In this document: one piece after another, positions 17,466 to 22,955 of the stretch
How positions within the stretch are numbered: position 1 is the stretch's first letter
Layout: each line of letters opens with the position of its first letter
Virus record (IMG/VR): IMGVR_UViG_2541047790_000011
Strand: one strand, 5' to 3'
Source of the DNA: a virus
Lineage: Duplodnaviria > Heunggongvirae > Uroviricota > Caudoviricetes
Length of the DNA stretch: 22,955 bases
The notes under the pieces: generated by a model
What the model saw: only the letters and a program-made list of their open reading frames with translations
The model's database searches: none
What the model was told of the DNA's origin: nothing
Program-made: the position numbers and the translations under genes

Positions 17466-17830
17466 AAATTGTTTTTTTGCCTGACCTCATGGGGGGCAAC
17501 GGGGCGCTACTATAGGGAGTTGGAATAAAACGGTCAAGAAGAATTTTTATGATAATTATTGTTTGCTCATACTGTAAACAAGTTGTGCAGTATATCTACA
17601 TCTGATGCGCCGCGCGATAAATAAGCCGCAATCCGTGAGATAAATGGACACAGTGCGGCTTTTCAGATACGGAAAAGGAATTACAGATTATCAGTCGTAA
17701 GCAACCCACGCTTACTGGCAAGGATGGTTTACAATGCTGAAAGCGCCTCCCGGCAATACCGCCAATCATCACTCAAACAGAAAAAATTATTGCTCATGGT
17801 TCACTCCGGTAATGAATCGTTTTACAGGCG

Positions 17831-18424
17831 TCATTCGGTCATGGAAAGATTGCTGATTTCGGTAATCCCGGCAATTTCCTCGCTGACGGATTTCAGTTCG
17901 ATTTCCAGCTTGGTGCGTTCGTTGACCAGCGCAGCTACGGTCTTACGGCGGTCTGCCAGTGACGGAAGGTTGTCATTGCCCCACGCCACGCTTTTATCCT
18001 TTTTGAGCGCTTCGGTCAGGCGGGTGGCGACCACATCCGGGAAGAAAAAGCATAACTTACGCATAACCGTCATCCCGACATCAGCCAGGGGGACATTCCC
18101 GCTCAGTCCCACCAGACGGAACAGACCAGAAATATCACCATTCTCATTTTCCAGATTACCCCAGCGTTCGGCGTTCCCTTCACTGCCGGAACCGTTGCAA
18201 AGAGCAAGCTTGAATGACTGATATTCTTCCTGCCCGAATCGCTCAATATATTCAGGAATAAAGGAACAGTAATCATTAAGCGATAATGGCATATCCTGTA
18301 ATGTGGTTATTTCACTGTTAATCTCTCCAATTCGGCGGGAGAGCTTTTCTTTCTGCTCATTCAGGGAGGCAAGATTATTTTTAACGGCGTTCAGTGCTTC
18401 GATAAGGGAAATAACAGGTTTCAT
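17831..18424 (-). CDS. Hypothetical protein (third gene of Mor-headed operon)
   Basis: 197 aa from MKPVISLIEALNAVKNNL; the start lies 1 nt after the upstream gene's stop. Coiled-coil-like N- and C-terminal segments; no recognised family. Confidence 0.5.
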   Translation of the reverse strand: MKPVISLIEALNAVKNNLASLNEQKEKLSRRIGEINSEITTLQDMPLSLNDYCSFIPEYIERFGQEEYQSFKLALCNGSGSEGNAERWGNLENENGDISGLFRLVGLSGNVPLADVGMTVMRKLCFFFPDVVATRLTEALKKDKSVAWGNDNLPSLADRRKTVAALVNERTKLEIELKSVSEEIAGITEISNLSMTE

Positions 18425-18425
18425 T

Positions 18426-19040
18426 TTAATAACTCCAGATGAAAGGCGTGGTGAGGGCGAGCGCTTCAGAATAGGAGACATTGCAGGCTGCACTTACGTC
18501 CTTTATTAAAAGGTGCTGTGCTGCCCTCTGACTGTCTGCTATGCCGTCAAACTCTGAAAAATGAACGTGTGATTCATTGTGATAAAAGCAAACCGGGTAA
18601 CAGCTTTCCATAAATTCTACCTGCGCCAGTCCCTTTACTGCTGGAGGCTGTGAGCCGAGAAAACCGATATGCTGAAGATACCAGGCACCGATTCCTGCCG
18701 GGTTGTTCGCTTCGCCGGGTCTATAAAATGCCGCAGACACTTTCCTGTAACGCCCTGCGCGTACCAGTCCCAGCAGGGTTTCATCAGGCTTAACCAGCGC
18801 GAAAAGCCTGCCGTTTTTACTTATCAGCCCAGTTGTTTCACCATAAGATGGGCTGTTGCTGGCCGGATGTCCAATACACAGCGGCGCACCATAACCCGCA
18901 CGATGATAGCCGTTATAGGCTGCCGCCATGTTGTCGATATCCTCGTCGGAAAAGGCAATTTCCTGCCCAGCCATCGTGATATGCGTTCCCGCCCGGAATA
19001 TCTCGATAGTTTTCCAGTTGCCAATATCGATATCTTTCAT
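18426..19040 (-). CDS. Hypothetical protein (second gene of Mor-headed operon)
   Basis: 204-aa ORF tightly coupled to both neighbours. The N-terminus (W-TIEIFRAGTHI--AGQEI-FS-EDIDN-AAAYN ... PLCIGHP) loosely recalls Mu-like prophage protein I / DUF-type phage proteins; this is a weak, unverified impression. Confidence 0.5.
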   Translation of the reverse strand: MKDIDIGNWKTIEIFRAGTHITMAGQEIAFSDEDIDNMAAAYNGYHRAGYGAPLCIGHPASNSPSYGETTGLISKNGRLFALVKPDETLLGLVRAGRYRKVSAAFYRPGEANNPAGIGAWYLQHIGFLGSQPPAVKGLAQVEFMESCYPVCFYHNESHVHFSEFDGIADSQRAAQHLLIKDVSAACNVSYSEALALTTPFIWSY

Positions 19041-19041
19041 T

Positions 19042-19569
19042 TTAAATTACCCCATATTTCGCATCGCGCTGTATTTTATTTTTCTTGCGTTCGGCGGCTA
19101 TAATCTGATAAATACACTGAATGGAACGCTTGTATTTTTTTGATAGTTCAAAAATAGAGATACCCTGATAAAAATCAGCCAGTATTTTTGAGTTCCTGTC
19201 GAAAGTGTTTTTTGATGCGCCCATAGGGATATATATATTCCCCCTGAAAAATGTATTCCTGAGACATTCAGTGATGGCAGGAGAAAGTTTTTCGGCTTGC
19301 GAACAGAGGTAAGGTATGGTTCCTAATGTCTGCTCAATAGATTCAGTCAGCTCCTGTAGGAAGCGAACTGCCTTAGGTGCTCTTTCTCGGTGTTCAGCCA
19401 TATACCCCTGGCAGCCACCAAGGTTATCAGAGATACCCAACACAATATGATTAGCCGCACTGCAGGACTGTTGCCGTGAATACCCTTTGTTGATCAGAAA
19501 CACTTCTATAGCATCGCCCATTGCCCCCAAAGTATCGGATGAAGCATACAATCCTTCTCTTGTAATCAT
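19042..19569 (-). CDS. Mor-family transcriptional activator-like protein
   Basis: C-terminal region RGNIYIPMGASKNTFDRNSKILADFYQGISIFELSKKYKRSIQCIYQIIAAERKK parallels the Mu Mor/C activator HTH region (G-VYIP-G ... R---I---F-G-----L---Y------IY-I---RK). GAGGTG lies 5-6 nt upstream of the ATG at 19569; the ORF track GTG at 19575 is an alternative. Confidence 0.6.
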   Translation of the reverse strand: MITREGLYASSDTLGAMGDAIEVFLINKGYSRQQSCSAANHIVLGISDNLGGCQGYMAEHRERAPKAVRFLQELTESIEQTLGTIPYLCSQAEKLSPAITECLRNTFFRGNIYIPMGASKNTFDRNSKILADFYQGISIFELSKKYKRSIQCIYQIIAAERKKNKIQRDAKYGVI

Positions 19570-19809
19570 AATCACACCTCGTCAACGATAAATATGCGCA
19601 CATAAAGCCTTTATAAAGCTTTATGAGGTGCATTACTGGTGTCATTCCATGATGCACACCACCAACAACCAAAAACGCCTTACAGAGCATTTCAATGTGT
19701 GTTATTAATGTGGATTAAGAATATGGTTTTGGGGCGAGAATGTTTTTTAATGTACTTTAGATATGACGAAGCCCCTCAAAGGAGGGGCGAGGCGGAAAAC
19801 TATTTATAA

Positions 19810-20088
19810 CTATTCCTTACTCTCCTGATCAAGACGATTACCTATCAGGTTAATCATTGCCATTGCATCAGATAGCAGGATACTGTTAACAAGTGCTAAG
19901 GGCGTCTGTGTTGATTTATCATCAACGGCAACAGAAAGTTCATCATTCAGGCGACGAACGGCCTCAAGACGGCTAAAGGCGGCTTCCCATATTTCTGTAC
20001 TCGGGGCATCAGCATTAACAAACAAAACATCGTAAGACGTTCCCTGAGACTCATGAGGACAGGCTATGAAATTAGCAGTAGCTTTCAT
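19810..20088 (-). CDS. Hypothetical small acidic protein (second gene of 2-gene operon)
   Basis: 92-aa ORF; its start overlaps the upstream gene's stop (ATGA at 20085-20088). No recognised family. Confidence 0.5.
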   Translation of the reverse strand: MKATANFIACPHESQGTSYDVLFVNADAPSTEIWEAAFSRLEAVRRLNDELSVAVDDKSTQTPLALVNSILLSDAMAMINLIGNRLDQESKE

Positions 20089-20564
20089 TTTGCAGTCCTC
20101 CGGTTAATTATAAATTTATTATAAATTTCATAACTTGCGGCATTCAGTCCTGGACTGTATTTATCTGCCAGTGAACAGGCAATGAATTCTTCAATCGATT
20201 TAGTCAGTATATCAAGCTCAGTTGTTCCGGAATAACGCAAGGCCACTCGAAATAATTCTCGGCAGTATGTTTTTTTATGGTCAATATTTTGTAACTGCTG
20301 TTGCGGTATATCACGACGTTCAAATATATTAACAAATGCATTAAGCGGGAAGCTATGATTTGCCTGCGGATATTGCTCATAGGAAAACACCACAGTATTA
20401 CCGTTGCATTCTTTAACAATTGCATTCATACCGCTGTTAATTTCAATATACCACTCTCCTATACATGGAGGATTGATAGCTTCGCTCTGTGCCTTGATTA
20501 AAGGTAAGCGGATAGTATCCACTTGGTTTGTTGCAACTGAATCGTTAGACTTGTCGTTAGCCAT
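20085..20564 (-). CDS. Hypothetical protein (first gene of 2-gene operon)
   Basis: 159 aa from MANDKSNDSV with AGGA 8 nt upstream. AT-rich codon usage by eye. No recognised family. Confidence 0.55.
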   Translation of the reverse strand: MANDKSNDSVATNQVDTIRLPLIKAQSEAINPPCIGEWYIEINSGMNAIVKECNGNTVVFSYEQYPQANHSFPLNAFVNIFERRDIPQQQLQNIDHKKTYCRELFRVALRYSGTTELDILTKSIEEFIACSLADKYSPGLNAASYEIYNKFIINRRTAK

Positions 20565-20597
20565 GACTGTTATCCTACACATAACGGTTTTTGGTTA

Positions 20598-20701
20598 GGC
20601 CATAGCAAGTGCTCGCAACATTTGTTATGGCCGTTTCTTTGGCCCTTTCCCTGTGATAAGGTATAGACCTAACAAGTAAACACTAAGCCATAGGTCTATA
20701 C
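20598..20701. promoter_or_regulatory. Divergent promoter region with two inverted repeats (candidate operators)
   Basis: IR1: ggccatagcaa (20598-20608) / ttgttatggcc (20622-20632), one mismatch. IR2: gtatagacct (20661-20670) / aggtctatac (20692-20701), perfect, 21-bp spacer. Located between the minus-strand 2-gene operon and the plus-strand RHH gene. Confidence 0.35.
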
Positions 20702-20752
20702 ATGTCAACTATCTTGAGAGATAAAAGCCAAAAAGGGGCAGGGAAAGCCCCC

Positions 20753-20893
20753 ATGTTTAACGTTAGAATATCGCCAGATTTGAAAGAACAGTTTGAAATA
20801 CAAGCAAAAAAAGAAGGTGTTAGCTTGGGAAACTGGCTCAAGGAACTTGGCAGGGCGGAACTAAAACGTAAGGGGATCGAGCCGAAAGGGTGA
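20753..20893 (+). CDS. Ribbon-helix-helix (CopG/Arc/MetJ-like) DNA-binding protein
   Basis: 46 aa from MFNVRISPDLKEQFEIQAKKEGVSLGNWLKELGRAELKR: a beta-strand followed by two helices is the RHH signature. AGGGA lies about 9 nt upstream of this ATG. The ORF-track start at 20702 has no Shine-Dalgarno and abuts IR2. Confidence 0.55.
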   Translation: MFNVRISPDLKEQFEIQAKKEGVSLGNWLKELGRAELKRKGIEPKG

Positions 20894-20919
20894 TGTTTTA
20901 GTCTCCCTGTGTTTGATTA

Positions 20920-21753
20920 AAAGCGAAATCGCTTTCACATTTAAAGTTCAAGATAGCCAATGCCATCACCAAAGCGGACAGCGCTGTCCGCTTTTCATCA
21001 GTAAAAACCACATATTTACGCCAAAACGCTCAACGTTGAGCGCTACGTACCCCGGCAAAAGCGCAAGCGTCTGCGCTTTTGGTAACAAGCAATCAGCATT
21101 TAAATGCGGACAACGTTGACCGTTTTGAGGAATCAATGTCGGCTGAGCAAAAACGACAACGTTGTCGTTTTTAAAACGGCAAGCGCTTACCGTTTCAGAT
21201 TATCGAGGCGGTAAGAGTTTACCGTTTGGTGTCAATTATGTTCAATAAGCGAAAACGTTTTCGCATTTTCTCACCTAACGCGGCAAACCTTCTTTGTCCT
21301 AGATGGAAAAACGACAGCGCTGTCGTTTCTAATCCGGGGTTCCAAACCGCTCAGCGCTGAGCGGTTCTGTGGCTTTCTTACAATCCAAATCCGCCAACGT
21401 TGGCAGATTTGCAAATATCACATATGATTGATGGTCCCGAATCACAAATGTCCCAGCGCGGGGATATTTCAAGTAGTTCAATCATTTCATGCGCTGGCAG
21501 TCATCTCCAAAACTGCGAACGCCTGCCCTTTCAGTACAGTTTGGTAATATATATTGGTAAGCTTTACTTGTAGAAATATAAAACTCCAAAAGCGCCAGCG
21601 CTGGCGCTTTGTAAGGCCAGCAATATCATTCCCAGCGCTGGAATACTAAAAGGCGGATTCCTGCATCTTAATTTGAGATGGAATCTCATGGCAATCCAGT
21701 GTTAACGTAGGGTTTTAGCCAGTACTCACGACTTGAATATGCCAGCGCTGGCA
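20920..21753. repeat. Array of at least 15 sequence-diverse palindromes with shared architecture (A-run, CG-rich arms around a CAGCGCTG or CAACGTTG centre, T-run)
   Basis: Perfect palindromes read directly: 20971-20994 (24 nt), 21027-21042 (16), 21149-21172 (24), 21249-21264 (16), 21309-21328 (20), 21345-21366 (22), 21393-21404 (12), 21589-21610 (22), 21632-21641 (10), 21740-21753 (14). Near-perfect: 20920-20935, 21057-21080, 21107-21122, 21174-21195, 21209-21224. No convincing ORF covers the array. Confidence 0.6.
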
Positions 21754-21990
21754 CATTTGAAGTCTGGTAACATCAATAATCTAATGACACCTGATGTAAT
21801 TTTGAACCCTGAACTGGAATCAACCCCAAATTTAATGGCAACAGCTATCAGCCAGATTACTGATGAACGTGACCTGCTGAACCAATTACTTGACCAAGCA
21901 CAGATGGCCGATGCATTCGAGCAATTTTCCCGAACGGTTCGGACTTCTAAACTGGCTTTTGTGAAGGAAAACAAGGGCTTTGTTGAATAA
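21739..21990 (+). CDS. Hypothetical ORF whose 3' end runs into the IS903 terminal inverted repeat (possibly insertion-truncated)
   Basis: About 83 aa from ATG 21739 (MPALAHLKSG...); the last codons (GGC TTT GTT GAA TAA) are IS903 end sequence. The start codon sits inside the 14-bp palindrome 21740-21753. Coding status uncertain. Confidence 0.3.
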   Translation: MPALAHLKSGNINNLMTPDVILNPELESTPNLMATAISQITDERDLLNQLLDQAQMADAFEQFSRTVRTSKLAFVKENKGFVE

Positions 21991-22955
21991 ATCAGATTTC
22001 GGGTAAGTCTCCCCCGTAGCGGGTTGTGTTTTCAGGCAATACGCACGCTTTCAGGCATACCTGCTTTCGTCATTTTGTTCAGCGCTCGTACCAGGGCCAT
22101 AGCCTCTGCAACCTGACCATCGTAGTCACGCAGTGTCAGTGAACCTCCGAACAGCTGTTTTACCCGGTACATCGCCGTTTCCGCTATCGAGCGACGGTTA
22201 TAATCTGTTGTCCATTTCCACCGCGCATTACTCCCGGTCAGCCGCTGATTCGCAACAGCACGGTTACGGTCTGCATATTCACCGGGCCAGTAACCCGCGC
22301 CTTTTCGGGGCGGGATAAGCGCGCTGATTTTCTTACGCCGCAGTTCATCGTGACAGAGCCGGGTGTCGTAAGCGCCGTCTGCCGATGCTGCCCTGATTTT
22401 TCTGTGAGTCTGCCGGATAAGACCCGGGAAGGCTTCTGAGTCCGTCACATTGTTCAGCGACAGGTCTGCACAGATGATTTCATGTGTTTTGCTGTCAACT
22501 GCCAGATGCAACTTTCGCCATATACGACGGCGTTCTTTGCCGTGTTTTTTGACTTTCCATTCGCCTTCACCAAAGACCTTCAGCCCGGTGGAATCAATCA
22601 CCAGATGCGCGATTTCACCTCGGGTGAACGTTTTGAAACTGACATTAACCGACTTTGCGCGCTTGCTGACACTGGTGTAATCCGGGCAGCGCAACGGAAC
22701 ATTCATCAGTGTAAAAATGGAATCAATAAAACCCTGTGCAGCCCGCAGGGTCAACCTGAACACGCGTTTAATGACCAGAACGGTGGTGATGGCGAGATCA
22801 GAATAGCGCTGAGGTCTTCCCCGTGATGAAGGCGTTGCCGACTCATACCAGGCCTGAATAGCTTCATCATCCAGCCAGAAAGTTATGGAGCCACGGTTGA
22901 TGAGGGCTTTATTGTAGGTGGGCCAGTTGGTGATTTTGAACTTTTGCTTTGCCAC
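21976..22955 (-). mobile_element. IS903 (IS5 family), partial - runs off the right window edge
   Basis: Terminal inverted repeat GGCTTTGTTGAATAAATC begins at about 21976; the internal transposase is recognisable as IS903 from memory. The ~1.06-kb element would end beyond base 22955. Confidence 0.88.
22032..22955 (-). CDS. IS903 transposase
   Basis: 307-codon ORF starting MAKQKFKITNWPTYNKALINRGSITFWLDDEAIQAWYESATPSSRGRPQRYSDLAITTVLVIKRVFRLTLRAAQGF, near-identical to the IS903 transposase as recalled. Start codon (GTG in this frame) is at the very last bases of the window. Confidence 0.9.
   Translation of the reverse strand: MAKQKFKITNWPTYNKALINRGSITFWLDDEAIQAWYESATPSSRGRPQRYSDLAITTVLVIKRVFRLTLRAAQGFIDSIFTLMNVPLRCPDYTSVSKRAKSVNVSFKTFTRGEIAHLVIDSTGLKVFGEGEWKVKKHGKERRRIWRKLHLAVDSKTHEIICADLSLNNVTDSEAFPGLIRQTHRKIRAASADGAYDTRLCHDELRRKKISALIPPRKGAGYWPGEYADRNRAVANQRLTGSNARWKWTTDYNRRSIAETAMYRVKQLFGGSLTLRDYDGQVAEAMALVRALNKMTKAGMPESVRIA

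Follow-up and report, generated by a model that had tools for sequence, protein, structure and literature searches.

In this work we examine a dense array of palindromes at positions 20,920 to 21,753 of a 22,955-nucleotide stretch of DNA (IMG/VR record IMGVR_UViG_2541047790_000011; Caudoviricetes), hereafter the window, which is a piece of an Escherichia coli ST131 chromosome comprising clpA, tRNA-Ser, an island and IS903. The array is carried by that island, a mobile element of about 5-8 kb (intact copies about 7.6 kb) that looks like a satellite of BcepMu-type transposable phages, here called helpers. We consider it probable that each unit of the array copies the site that one BcepMu-type lineage keeps for its own DUF3102 protein, a candidate dimeric helix-turn-helix (HTH) protein with a ParB/KorB-like domain. 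A DUF3102 dimer is predicted to bind the dyad, and the array would then, on the balance of the evidence, be a multi-specificity docking platform for the DUF3102 proteins of helpers. Under this reading the units would be self-complementary because a dimer reads them, and their arms would differ because each serves a different protein allele, rather than through selection on hairpins.

A dense and non-random array of palindromes

A palindrome scan of the whole window returned 13 perfect palindromes of 10 nt or longer between 20971 and 21753 (in order, 24, 16, 12, 24, 16, 20, 22, 12, 10, 10, 22, 10 and 14 nt), and over the other 22 kb the longest perfect palindrome is at most 14 nt. When mismatches are tolerated, the units have in common a 24-nt frame, AAA-N6-A-R-C/G-Y-T-N6-TTT (the slash, here and below, marks the centre of symmetry); 16 CG-centred 24-nt dyads lie within 20919-21758, together with at least one decayed unit with a non-CG centre, and the perfect palindromes GCATTTAAATGC, ATTTGCAAAT and AATATATATT stand outside the dyad family. 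Unit centres are irregularly spaced, 24-147 bp apart. The first unit lies 27 bp 3' of the stop of a ribbon-helix-helix (RHH) gene (20893), and the last overlaps an ATG at 21739.

The cluster is real and non-random. Across 5000 dinucleotide-preserving shuffles of 20920-21753, the mean numbers of perfect palindromes were 1.1 (at least 10 nt), 0.08 (at least 14), 0.02 (at least 16) and 0.002 (at least 20), against 13, 8, 7 and 5 observed, and none of the 5000 equalled the observed count in any length class. The maxima for other 834-bp stretches before position 20000 were 4, 1, 0 and 0 in the same classes.

The first-pass annotation, made from the letters of the window, had described this array, bounded it by the RHH gene and the start codon of an open reading frame (ORF) cut by IS903, and named a shuffle control as a possible refutation; the array and its boundaries stand, its five quoted example palindromes are all where it placed them, and the control sets the array apart from chance. 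It was also right that one recognition sequence cannot explain the array, and that the array is neither of the REP/BIME (repetitive extragenic palindromic/bacterial interspersed mosaic element) kind, which has one consensus, nor of the CRISPR (clustered regularly interspaced short palindromic repeats) kind, with its constant repeat and regular spacing: the arms vary from unit to unit and the spacing is irregular. An Rfam search at a permissive threshold gave two sub-threshold matches, of which the one inside the array is not credible, and no Rfam family fits the array. In agreement with the annotation's view that this is not a described element, we found no account in the literature of such arrays or of satellites of transposable phages, and the array is apparently undescribed.

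Recurrence in other genomes, which had been proposed as a check, was confirmed: the array is present in copies that are 72-88% identical over its length. Between satellite copies whole units are gained or lost as indels, and centres switch symmetrically between AGCGCT and AACGTT, with the half-switched centres AACGCT and AGCGTT present in MS 115-1. In one satellite variant (L005 11480-12000; L013-L015 6200-6700) two copies of TGATAAATATTTATCA and a 114-aa ORF stand in place of the first half of the array, leaving 4-6 dyads.

Array units correspond to the single dyads of helper phages

A query with the right end of the element returned full-length prophages interrupting random genes, including, in glcF of EcPF16, a 30-kb BcepMu-type transposable prophage with a P2-like tail module. 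The early operon of this prophage encodes a small ORF, an IclR-type HTH protein, a DUF3102 protein (302 aa), a DDE transposase and an AAA_22 ATPase and, further along, gp16 and Mor. In its roughly 30 kb there is exactly one palindrome of the array family, AAAAGCGCAAGC/GCTTGCGCTTTT, located at about nucleotide 350 of the DUF3102 gene, in frame (..PKAQALALLG..) and just upstream of the transposase gene. Among 80 related IMG/VR loci whose DUF3102 proteins are 54-99% identical, about 75 carry a 24-nt palindrome at the same codon, mostly with 12/12 pairs, and about 20 different sequences are found there.

Comparison of these sites with the window shows that the unit types of the array are the same sequences as the lineage-specific single dyads of the helpers. 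Each of the 16 window units differs from some helper type at no more than 6 of 24 positions, in 7 of the 13 best units the arm is exactly that of a helper type, and positions 1-20800 contain no other site closer than 12 mismatches to the helper types. Taken together, the satellites represent 13 of 14 helper arm types. The units of the window, with the number of complementary pairs between their arms, are as follows.

20919..20942: AAAAGCGAAATC/GCTTTCACATTT, 9/12 pairs; decayed copy of the AAAAGCGAAAAC type, perfect in MS 115-1 and AW1.7
20971..20994: AAAGCGGACAGC/GCTGTCCGCTTT, 12/12; closest helper type AAAACGGACAGC
21023..21046: AAAACGCTCAAC/GTTGAGCGCTAC, 9/12 with a perfect 16-nt core; left arm exactly helper type AAAACGCTCAAC
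21057..21080: AAAAGCGCAAGC/GTCTGCGCTTTT, 10/12; same as the EcPF16 helper site AAAAGCGCAAGC/GCTTGCGCTTTT
21103..21126: AATGCGGACAAC/GTTGACCGTTTT, 9/12
21149..21172: AAAAACGACAAC/GTTGTCGTTTTT, 12/12; exactly helper type AAAAACGACAAC, of the HTH class of the prophage resident in ST131 SaT040
21173..21196: AAAACGGCAAGC/GCTTACCGTTTC, 10/12; helper type AAAACGGCAAGC, unchanged in Burkholderia too
21209..21224: decayed unit CGGTAAGAGTTTACCG, non-CG centre; perfect palindrome CGGTAAACGTTTACCG in MS 115-1, AW1.7 and L012
21245..21268: ATAAGCGAAAAC/GTTTTCGCATTT, 10/12; helper type AAAAGCGAAAAC, centre AGCGCT in AW1.7 and AACGCT in MS 115-1
21307..21330: AAAAACGACAGC/GCTGTCGTTTCT, 11/12; centre AACGTT in AW1.7
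21344..21367: AAACCGCTCAGC/GCTGAGCGGTTC, 11/12; closest helper type AAAACGCTCAGC
21387..21410: AAATCCGCCAAC/GTTGGCAGATTT, 11/12; closest helper type AAATGTGCCAAC
21446..21469: AAATGTCCCAGC/GCGGGGATATTT, 10/12; closest helper type AAAAGTCCCAGC
21509..21532: decayed unit AAAACTGCGAAC/GCCTGCCCTTTC, 6/12; homologue of AAAACGGCAAGC/GCCTGCCGTTTC in the Citrobacter copy
21588..21611: AAAAGCGCCAGC/GCTGGCGCTTTG, 11/12; helper type AAAAGCGCCAGC
21625..21648: decayed unit ATCATTCCCAGC/GCTGGAATACTA; helper type TTCATTCCCAGC
21735..21758: GAATATGCCAGC/GCTGGCACATTT, 10/12; helper types AAATATGCCAGC and AAATGTGCCAGC, overlapping the ATG at 21739

Homology to helper genes ends 2-4 nt outside each dyad, which means that the coding sequence on either side of it in the helpers was not brought in. 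The possibility that the array is a decayed DUF3102 pseudogene was ruled out because of this limit; blastx and blastn searches against helper genes match the dyads alone. A helper and the window's element also coexist: the ST131 strain SaT040 has both a helper-type transposase and this element, and the dyad of its helper is AAAAGCGACAAC/GTTGTCGCTTTT. Two window units, at 21149 and 21307, are of the HTH class of that helper and differ from its dyad by one symmetric base per arm, a variant also found in helper L026. The SaT040 prophage lies about 130 kb from the element (L101, NZ_CP014495 1079784-1088553), and its early region, with a Gam-family gene and another repressor, is unlike that of EcPF16.

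Helpers of this kind are common: 639 of 5426 complete E. coli genomes, that of SaT040 among them, encode the helper transposase at about 90% identity or more. The rve catalytic core of the helper transposase spans residues 152-282, a domain search found no match in it to the Mu I-alpha domain, and the neighbouring ATPase is of the AAA_22/ExeA type, i.e. MuB/TniB-like. BcepMu-type transposases are related to that of Tn552 and act on TG..CA termini, and in BcepMu itself gp10 is the DUF3102-type neighbour of the transposase (PMC2628397).

Dyad type follows a hypervariable helix-turn-helix in DUF3102

Sequence comparison shows the dyads to be coupled to a hypervariable HTH encoded in the same gene, a coupling that holds across genera, with E. 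coli and Burkholderia as its reach. Among 64 enterobacterial DUF3102 sequences the mean pairwise identity of residues 83-125 is 0.57, against 0.90 for residues 31-82. An AlphaFold (AF2) model (mean predicted local distance difference test score 75.5) places a helix at 81-91, a turn and a helix at 96-109, which make up the HTH, followed by a helix at 115-124 that is encoded by the palindrome itself. Variants of the HTH pair with particular arms: RTAQ, RAAQ and RIAQ with AAAAGCG; RTAR, RAAR and RVAR with AAAACGG or AAAACGC; STAH and TTAY with GTCCC or ATTCCC; and RTSV with AAATGTGCC. Individual recognition helices and their arms are listed below.

SKRTAQV: arm AAAAGCGCA
PERTAQR: arm AAAAGCGCC
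HVRAAQR: arm AAAA(G/A)CGAC
EPRIAQK: arm AAAAGCGAA
AERTARL: arm AAAACGGCA
EPRVARR: arm AAAACGGAC
APQVARR: arm AAA(A)CGCTC
PKSTAHR: arm AAAAGTCCC
YRTSVR: arm AAAT(G/A)TGCC

Because helix and site lie about 20 codons apart, so that linkage could yield part of this association, arms were predicted from the protein of three distant homologues and the DNA was fetched only afterwards. In Burkholderia cenocepacia (RTARL) the dyad is exactly of the E. coli type, AAAACGGCAAGC/GCTTGCCGTTTT (12/12), and is written in A/T-rich codons despite a third-position G+C content of 0.75 for the gene. Cupriavidus (RAAQR) carries AAAAGCGACAAC/GTTGTCGGTTTT (11/12), and Marinobacter (RTARL) carries AAAACGGCAGAC/GTTTGCCGTTTT (11/12), whose arm begins with AAAACGGCA. 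Furthermore, among representatives of 50%-identity clusters, Q as opposed to R at helix position 4 predicts Ala (GCG) as opposed to Arg (CGN) at the second palindrome-encoded residue (26:3 vs 5:13; Fisher p = 2e-5).

By analogy with the Mu enhancer, the dyad might have covaried with the repressor, the Ner-like protein or the transposase. This was ruled out: in L021, L028 and L060 the repressor, Ner-like protein, transposase and ATPase are 96-100% identical, yet the three loci carry three different dyads.

The likeness of the DUF3102 model to ParB and KorB DNA-binding domains is suggestive and falls short of proof, because a score of 7.5 is reached by Raf1, a helical protein that is unrelated. 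A Foldseek search with the complete model returned nothing significant, probably owing to its long coiled coil, and searches of DUF3102 against PDB sequences, with a single sequence and with a profile, gave no significant match; the best local hhalign match, itself non-significant, puts GDFIDIVESQLSLSKRTAQVMMQAS in register with the HTH of plasmid ParB. A Pfam search of the helper protein detected DUF3102 only and no ParB N-terminal domain, and we found no account of DUF3102 function in the literature.

A predicted docking platform and competing explanations

When a helper expresses its early operon, its DUF3102 protein, whichever allele this is, would find its cognate unit in the array, and the conserved C-terminal half of the docked protein would act on the satellite as on the phage. 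Docking might recruit the helper transposition machinery in an enhancer-like manner, might allow the satellite to sense helper induction, or might titrate the helper protein. The first of these options is attractive because the helper transposase is without a Mu-type enhancer-binding domain and because the satellite copy in KCJ3K291 has a DUF3102 homologue in place of the array.

Several considerations weigh against this reading. The predicted binding of DUF3102 to the dyad is deduced from comparing sequences, and with HTH segment and palindrome only about 20 codons apart, co-inheritance alone gives some association. The perfect symmetry, which includes the centre, is stricter than that of usual operators and compatible with an extruded or hairpin form. 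B3-type DUF3102 homologues, in the KCJ3K291 satellite and in Pseudomonas phages, have no palindrome at the corresponding codon, and no cognate site for the B3-type homologue is recognisable in the KCJ3K291 satellite. Finally, with several of its units decayed and some of its genes gone, the ST131 copy in the window may be inactive.

Selection on hairpin or cruciform structure, which the first-pass annotation preferred, would have the units act as RNA or single-stranded DNA hairpins, possibly through an array transcript that pairs with the helper DUF3102-transposase mRNA and so controls the transposase. Palindromic RNA is self-complementary, and a transcript of either strand could pair over 24 nt or kiss through a GCGC or ACGU loop. 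Such a mechanism accords with symmetry that runs through the centre, with covarying arms and with a helper site that is transcribed by virtue of lying inside an early gene, and it would also explain why a satellite collects one unit per helper type; the array does fold better than shuffled sequences (z = -8), although this is an automatic consequence of its palindromes. It leaves unexplained, however, why the only hypervariable protein segment of the early region is the HTH beside the palindrome, and why helix residues predict arm bases across genera. A loop has no need of self-complementarity, intramolecular folding competes with intermolecular pairing, no Rfam family matches, and helpers should lose a site that is only a liability, yet about 75 of 80 keep it perfect. 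With each unit type equal to the single dyad of one helper lineage and tracking the adjacent HTH segment of DUF3102, we regard structure-based selection as unlikely.

The array could also be without present function, its units being tolerated scars, left by palindrome-templated repair and by repeated exchange with the DUF3102 genes of helpers through recombination or gene conversion. The DUF3102 remnant of the ST131-type element does end exactly at a palindrome: in SCU-387, whose copy has no insertion sequence, the homology of this gene stops there, the codon being the one that bears the palindrome in helper genes. Indels add or remove whole units between copies, and many units are imperfect in satellites and perfect in helpers. 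We nevertheless judge scars to be quite unlikely, given that helper homology stops so close to each dyad with no flanking coding sequence, that the position of the array is conserved among the MS 115-1, AW1.7, Citrobacter plasmid, L012 and ST131 copies at 72-88% identity, that centres switch symmetrically, and that coverage of 13 of the 14 helper arm types is hard to reach by accident.

That the units are operators or a centromere-like site for the element's own RHH protein, another suggestion of the annotation, came close as to the kind of site and erred as to the protein. The array starts 27 bp after the RHH gene, and RHH proteins such as ParG and omega are generally known to bind reiterated sites; but about 14 arm types are too many for one RHH protein of the ParG, omega or CopG kind, L016, L017 and the KCJ3K291 variant have the RHH gene but no array, and in helpers the same dyads stand singly inside DUF3102, away from any RHH gene, none being annotated in the helper early region. 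This assignment is very unlikely, and the RHH protein is probably the element's own regulator and not the partner of the array.

Tandem bidirectional intrinsic terminators insulating the RHH gene from downstream genes, also raised by the annotation, are scarcely tenable as the primary role: the layout of A-run, stem and T-run fits, about 5 of 16 units on the plus strand and 3 of 16 on the minus strand have a stem of -8 to -15 kcal/mol with at least 5 U in the next 8 nt, and a consensus scan flags one unit, but the T-tracts are short in most units, that scan found 4 terminator-like sites in 1.6 kb against 1.5 expected with a single one in the array, the helper dyad lies within a translated gene in mid-operon, ahead of the transposase gene, a position in which termination would do harm, and termination leaves the match to helper types unexplained. 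A likeness to LacI/PurR-type operators, considered on account of the central CG, was dropped once the correspondence with helpers appeared.

The mobile element carrying the array

The features of the element within the window, and the insertion that interrupts it, are as follows.

17603..17660: left end of the element (TGATGCGCCGCGCGATAAAT..CCGTGAGATAAATGG), nearly identical to one helper-prophage end; target duplication TACATC at 17597-17602
17831..20564, minus strand: leftward operon, made up in order of the next five ORFs
17831-18424, minus strand: 197-aa coiled-coil protein
18426-19040, minus strand: 204-aa protein resembling the N-terminus of a head-maturation protease
19042-19569, minus strand: Mor-family activator
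19810-20088 and 20085-20564, minus strand: two ORFs without assignment
20702..20893, plus strand: RHH (Arc/HicB-like) gene, 63 aa; Pfam HicB and RHH_5, PHROG Arc-like repressor
21739..21974, plus strand: N-terminal 78 codons of a B3-type DUF3102 homologue, cut by IS903 at 21975
21975..22955, minus strand: IS903 (IS5 family), a later insertion that runs off the window; its terminal repeat GGCTTTGTTGAATAAATC starts at 21975

A comparison of insertion sites shows that the element is mobile. The same element, 99-100% identical and without the insertion sequence, lies between nadC and ppdD in SCU-387, with a 6-bp target duplication on either side of it in each strain (TACATC in ST131, CTTATC in SCU-387). 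Both junctions could be read at five sites (duplications ACTCAT, ATTGCA, AGTGAA, CTTATC and TACATC); the tips are TG..CA, in the form TGAT...ATCA at the sites with ACTCAT, AGTGAA or ATTGCA. Related copies, 72-88% identical over the array, lie between dacD and sbmC in MS 115-1, in ynbC and in a lambdoid major capsid gene in AW1.7, in a phosphotransferase system gene (VREC0864), in ybhJ (KCJ3K291) and in the leading region of a Citrobacter IncF plasmid. The second AW1.7 copy (L105 1-9400; NZ_CP073624 2424328-2433700) inactivates the major capsid gene of a lambdoid prophage.

The ends of the EcPF16 prophage, which is flanked by the 6-bp duplication AATAAT, nearly match those of the satellites, including a repeated GTGAGATAAAT motif. 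With both of its ends near-identical to those of a BcepMu-type prophage, the element has the requirements for mobilisation in trans. Like a non-autonomous BcepMu-type derivative, it combines both phage ends, TG..CA tips and a duplication of equal length with the absence of a transposase gene (no rve domain); domain searches found neither a transposase nor an integrase domain in its ORFs. It apparently moves by the machinery of helper phages, and we infer its dependence on a helper because it has ends in common with the helper, no transposase, and morphogenesis-related genes.

Intact copies encode a tape measure protein, the 197-aa coiled-coil protein, the 204-aa protease-N-terminus-like protein, the Mor activator and two unknown proteins and, on the divergent side, the RHH protein, the array and an N-terminal fragment-like homologue of Mu gp27 (small terminase). 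This gene content suggests that the satellite also interferes with, or borrows, virion assembly. The 204-aa protein aligns with the first third only of the head-maturation protease family phrog_976 (E 4e-45 for the MS 115-1 homologue) and is a candidate satellite scaffold or capsid-size factor. The tape-measure gene is kept in the MS 115-1, AW1.7, Citrobacter and IMG/VR L012 copies and is deleted at about 17739 in the ST131 copy, by an internal deletion of about 2.4 kb (window 17603-17741). This shortened ST131-type element still moved between two chromosomal sites, those of ST131 and SCU-387. A defence-gene scan found no defence-system match among the ORFs of the element.

The RHH gene is 74-98% identical across related loci, some of which have differing arrays and some no array. 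At the position where other satellites have the array, KCJ3K291 has a complete DUF3102 homologue; this variant (L018 18447-19886) is without an array, its 318-aa B3-type homologue has no palindrome, and it also carries two tandem small ORFs (58 and 67 aa) that are RHH-like by eye and have no Pfam match. The DUF3102-homologue fragment at 21739..21974 in the window is probably a dead remnant.

Further observations concern the remainder of the element. The right arm of the ST131 type, from the last palindrome to the right end, contains a fragment of an IS91-family zinc-binding transposase domain (L011 10975-11119; L001, homologous stretch beyond the window). In MS 115-1 (L007 7640-8350), and likewise in L008, L004 and L009 but not in the window, about 700 conserved bp separate the array from the gp27-like gene. 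This block resembles a type I toxin module of the TisB type: it comprises a strong terminator, a 34-nt inverted repeat pair, a TTGATT-17-TATAAT promoter and a hydrophobic ORF of 27 aa, MKGFLQIAVIALKAIVAFIELILACLP. A weak Rfam match to an R1162-like plasmid antisense RNA (31.7 bits; gathering score 55), at 20557-20633 on the minus strand, coincides with a terminator-like hairpin with a 14-bp stem at 20598-20632, in the interval that separates the element's divergent operons.

Relation to known systems

The closest parallel to the proposed DUF3102-dyad pair is offered by ParB-parS and KorB-OB, whose sites are dyad-symmetric and 13-16 bp or more in length. There, dyads are read by a dimeric HTH domain, as is predicted for the present ones, and in those systems too the site can lie inside or beside the gene for its binding protein. 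In work on ParB/Noc specificity switching (PDB 6s6h), a few residues in or near the recognition helix reportedly reset specificity. The present system differs in that no ParB N-terminal CTP-binding (CTPase) domain was detected and no ParA partner is present, both of which are defining for those systems, the site is 24 bp long, the host is a transposable phage that is integrated and needs no partition, and the array mixes many specificities.

Mu has an internal activation sequence, a phage-specific cis site near the transposase gene (Mu vs D108), and the helper dyad is likewise an internal and presumably cis-acting site of a transposable phage near its transposase gene. Unlike the Mu enhancer, which the I-alpha domain of the transposase binds and whose specificity is shared with the repressor, it is a single 24-bp dyad inside a gene and not an operator cluster, its type is independent of transposase and repressor (96-99% identical), and the transposase is of the Tn552/BcepMu type, with its core at 152-282 and no I-alpha match. 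Laboratory mini-Mu elements, derivatives consisting of ends only, are mobilised in trans, as is proposed for the present element.

Functionally, the nearest precedents are found among hitchhiking elements. Satellite P4 carries P2 Cox boxes in its late promoter region, where a small DNA-binding protein of the helper acts on reiterated sites and the satellite responds to the helper. All Cox boxes repeat a single short motif read by a single protein, and P4 integrates by its own integrase; in the present array each unit corresponds to another helper allele, and it is transposition that moves the element. By mimicking several oriT types at about two or three sites, some mobilisable plasmids and islands exploit different conjugative helpers. 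They too combine cis sites of differing specificity and thereby become open to more than one variant of helper, but they do so for conjugation and relaxases, and not for transposable phages with a dense array of at least 16. As in the P4-like, PICI, cfPICI, PLE and PICMI satellites, the element is small and has a partial virion gene set with helper-derived morphogenesis and regulatory genes. Unlike P4-like, PICI and PLE satellites, it has no integrase domain that we could find and no fixed attachment site, and it has many insertion sites with 6-bp duplications and the ends of its helper. By its lack of an integrase and its insertion through transposition the element falls outside the described satellite families, and its gene make-up is not known to match any of them.

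Implications for satellites and their helpers

Arrays of cis-acting protein-binding sites on hitchhiking elements are already known in kind; one site per helper allele is the unusual logic. As a tentative extension, which we hold to be possible rather than probable, the array may reflect an arms race in which phages diversify a self-contained cassette of recognition helix and own 24-bp site, and the satellite accumulates one site per helper allele, to exploit, or else disarm, most helper lineages in a range from E. coli to Burkholderia. In this cassette a single gene would hold helix and site at a distance of 20 codons, and the next helix of the protein would be encoded by the site. Diversification of the cassette would stop relatives and parasites from using the phage machinery, and the array would be a master key for an element of 5-8 kb. 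On that view the element would belong to a new class of phage satellite, one that moves by borrowed transposition, and the array would be a new means for a parasite to broaden its range of helpers.

If the docking of helper DUF3102 proteins on the array is borne out, DUF3102 (BcepMu gp10-like; about 1,500 homologues), which is encoded next to the transposase in a type of phage that about 12% of complete E. coli genomes carry, would be a family of site-specific DNA-binding proteins. Their recognition code would be readable, as site and reading helix share one gene. The element would represent a new type of satellite, which has the ends of its helper and no transposase and inserts anywhere; to our knowledge current satellite finders look for integrases, and such elements would be missed. 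Its strategy would be new for a genetic parasite: where one cis site might be expected, there would be a library of them, as diverse as the alleles of its helpers. The array would then give about 14 natural protein-site pairs for the study of specificity change in ParB/KorB-like domains, together with a simple sequence signature for finding such elements.

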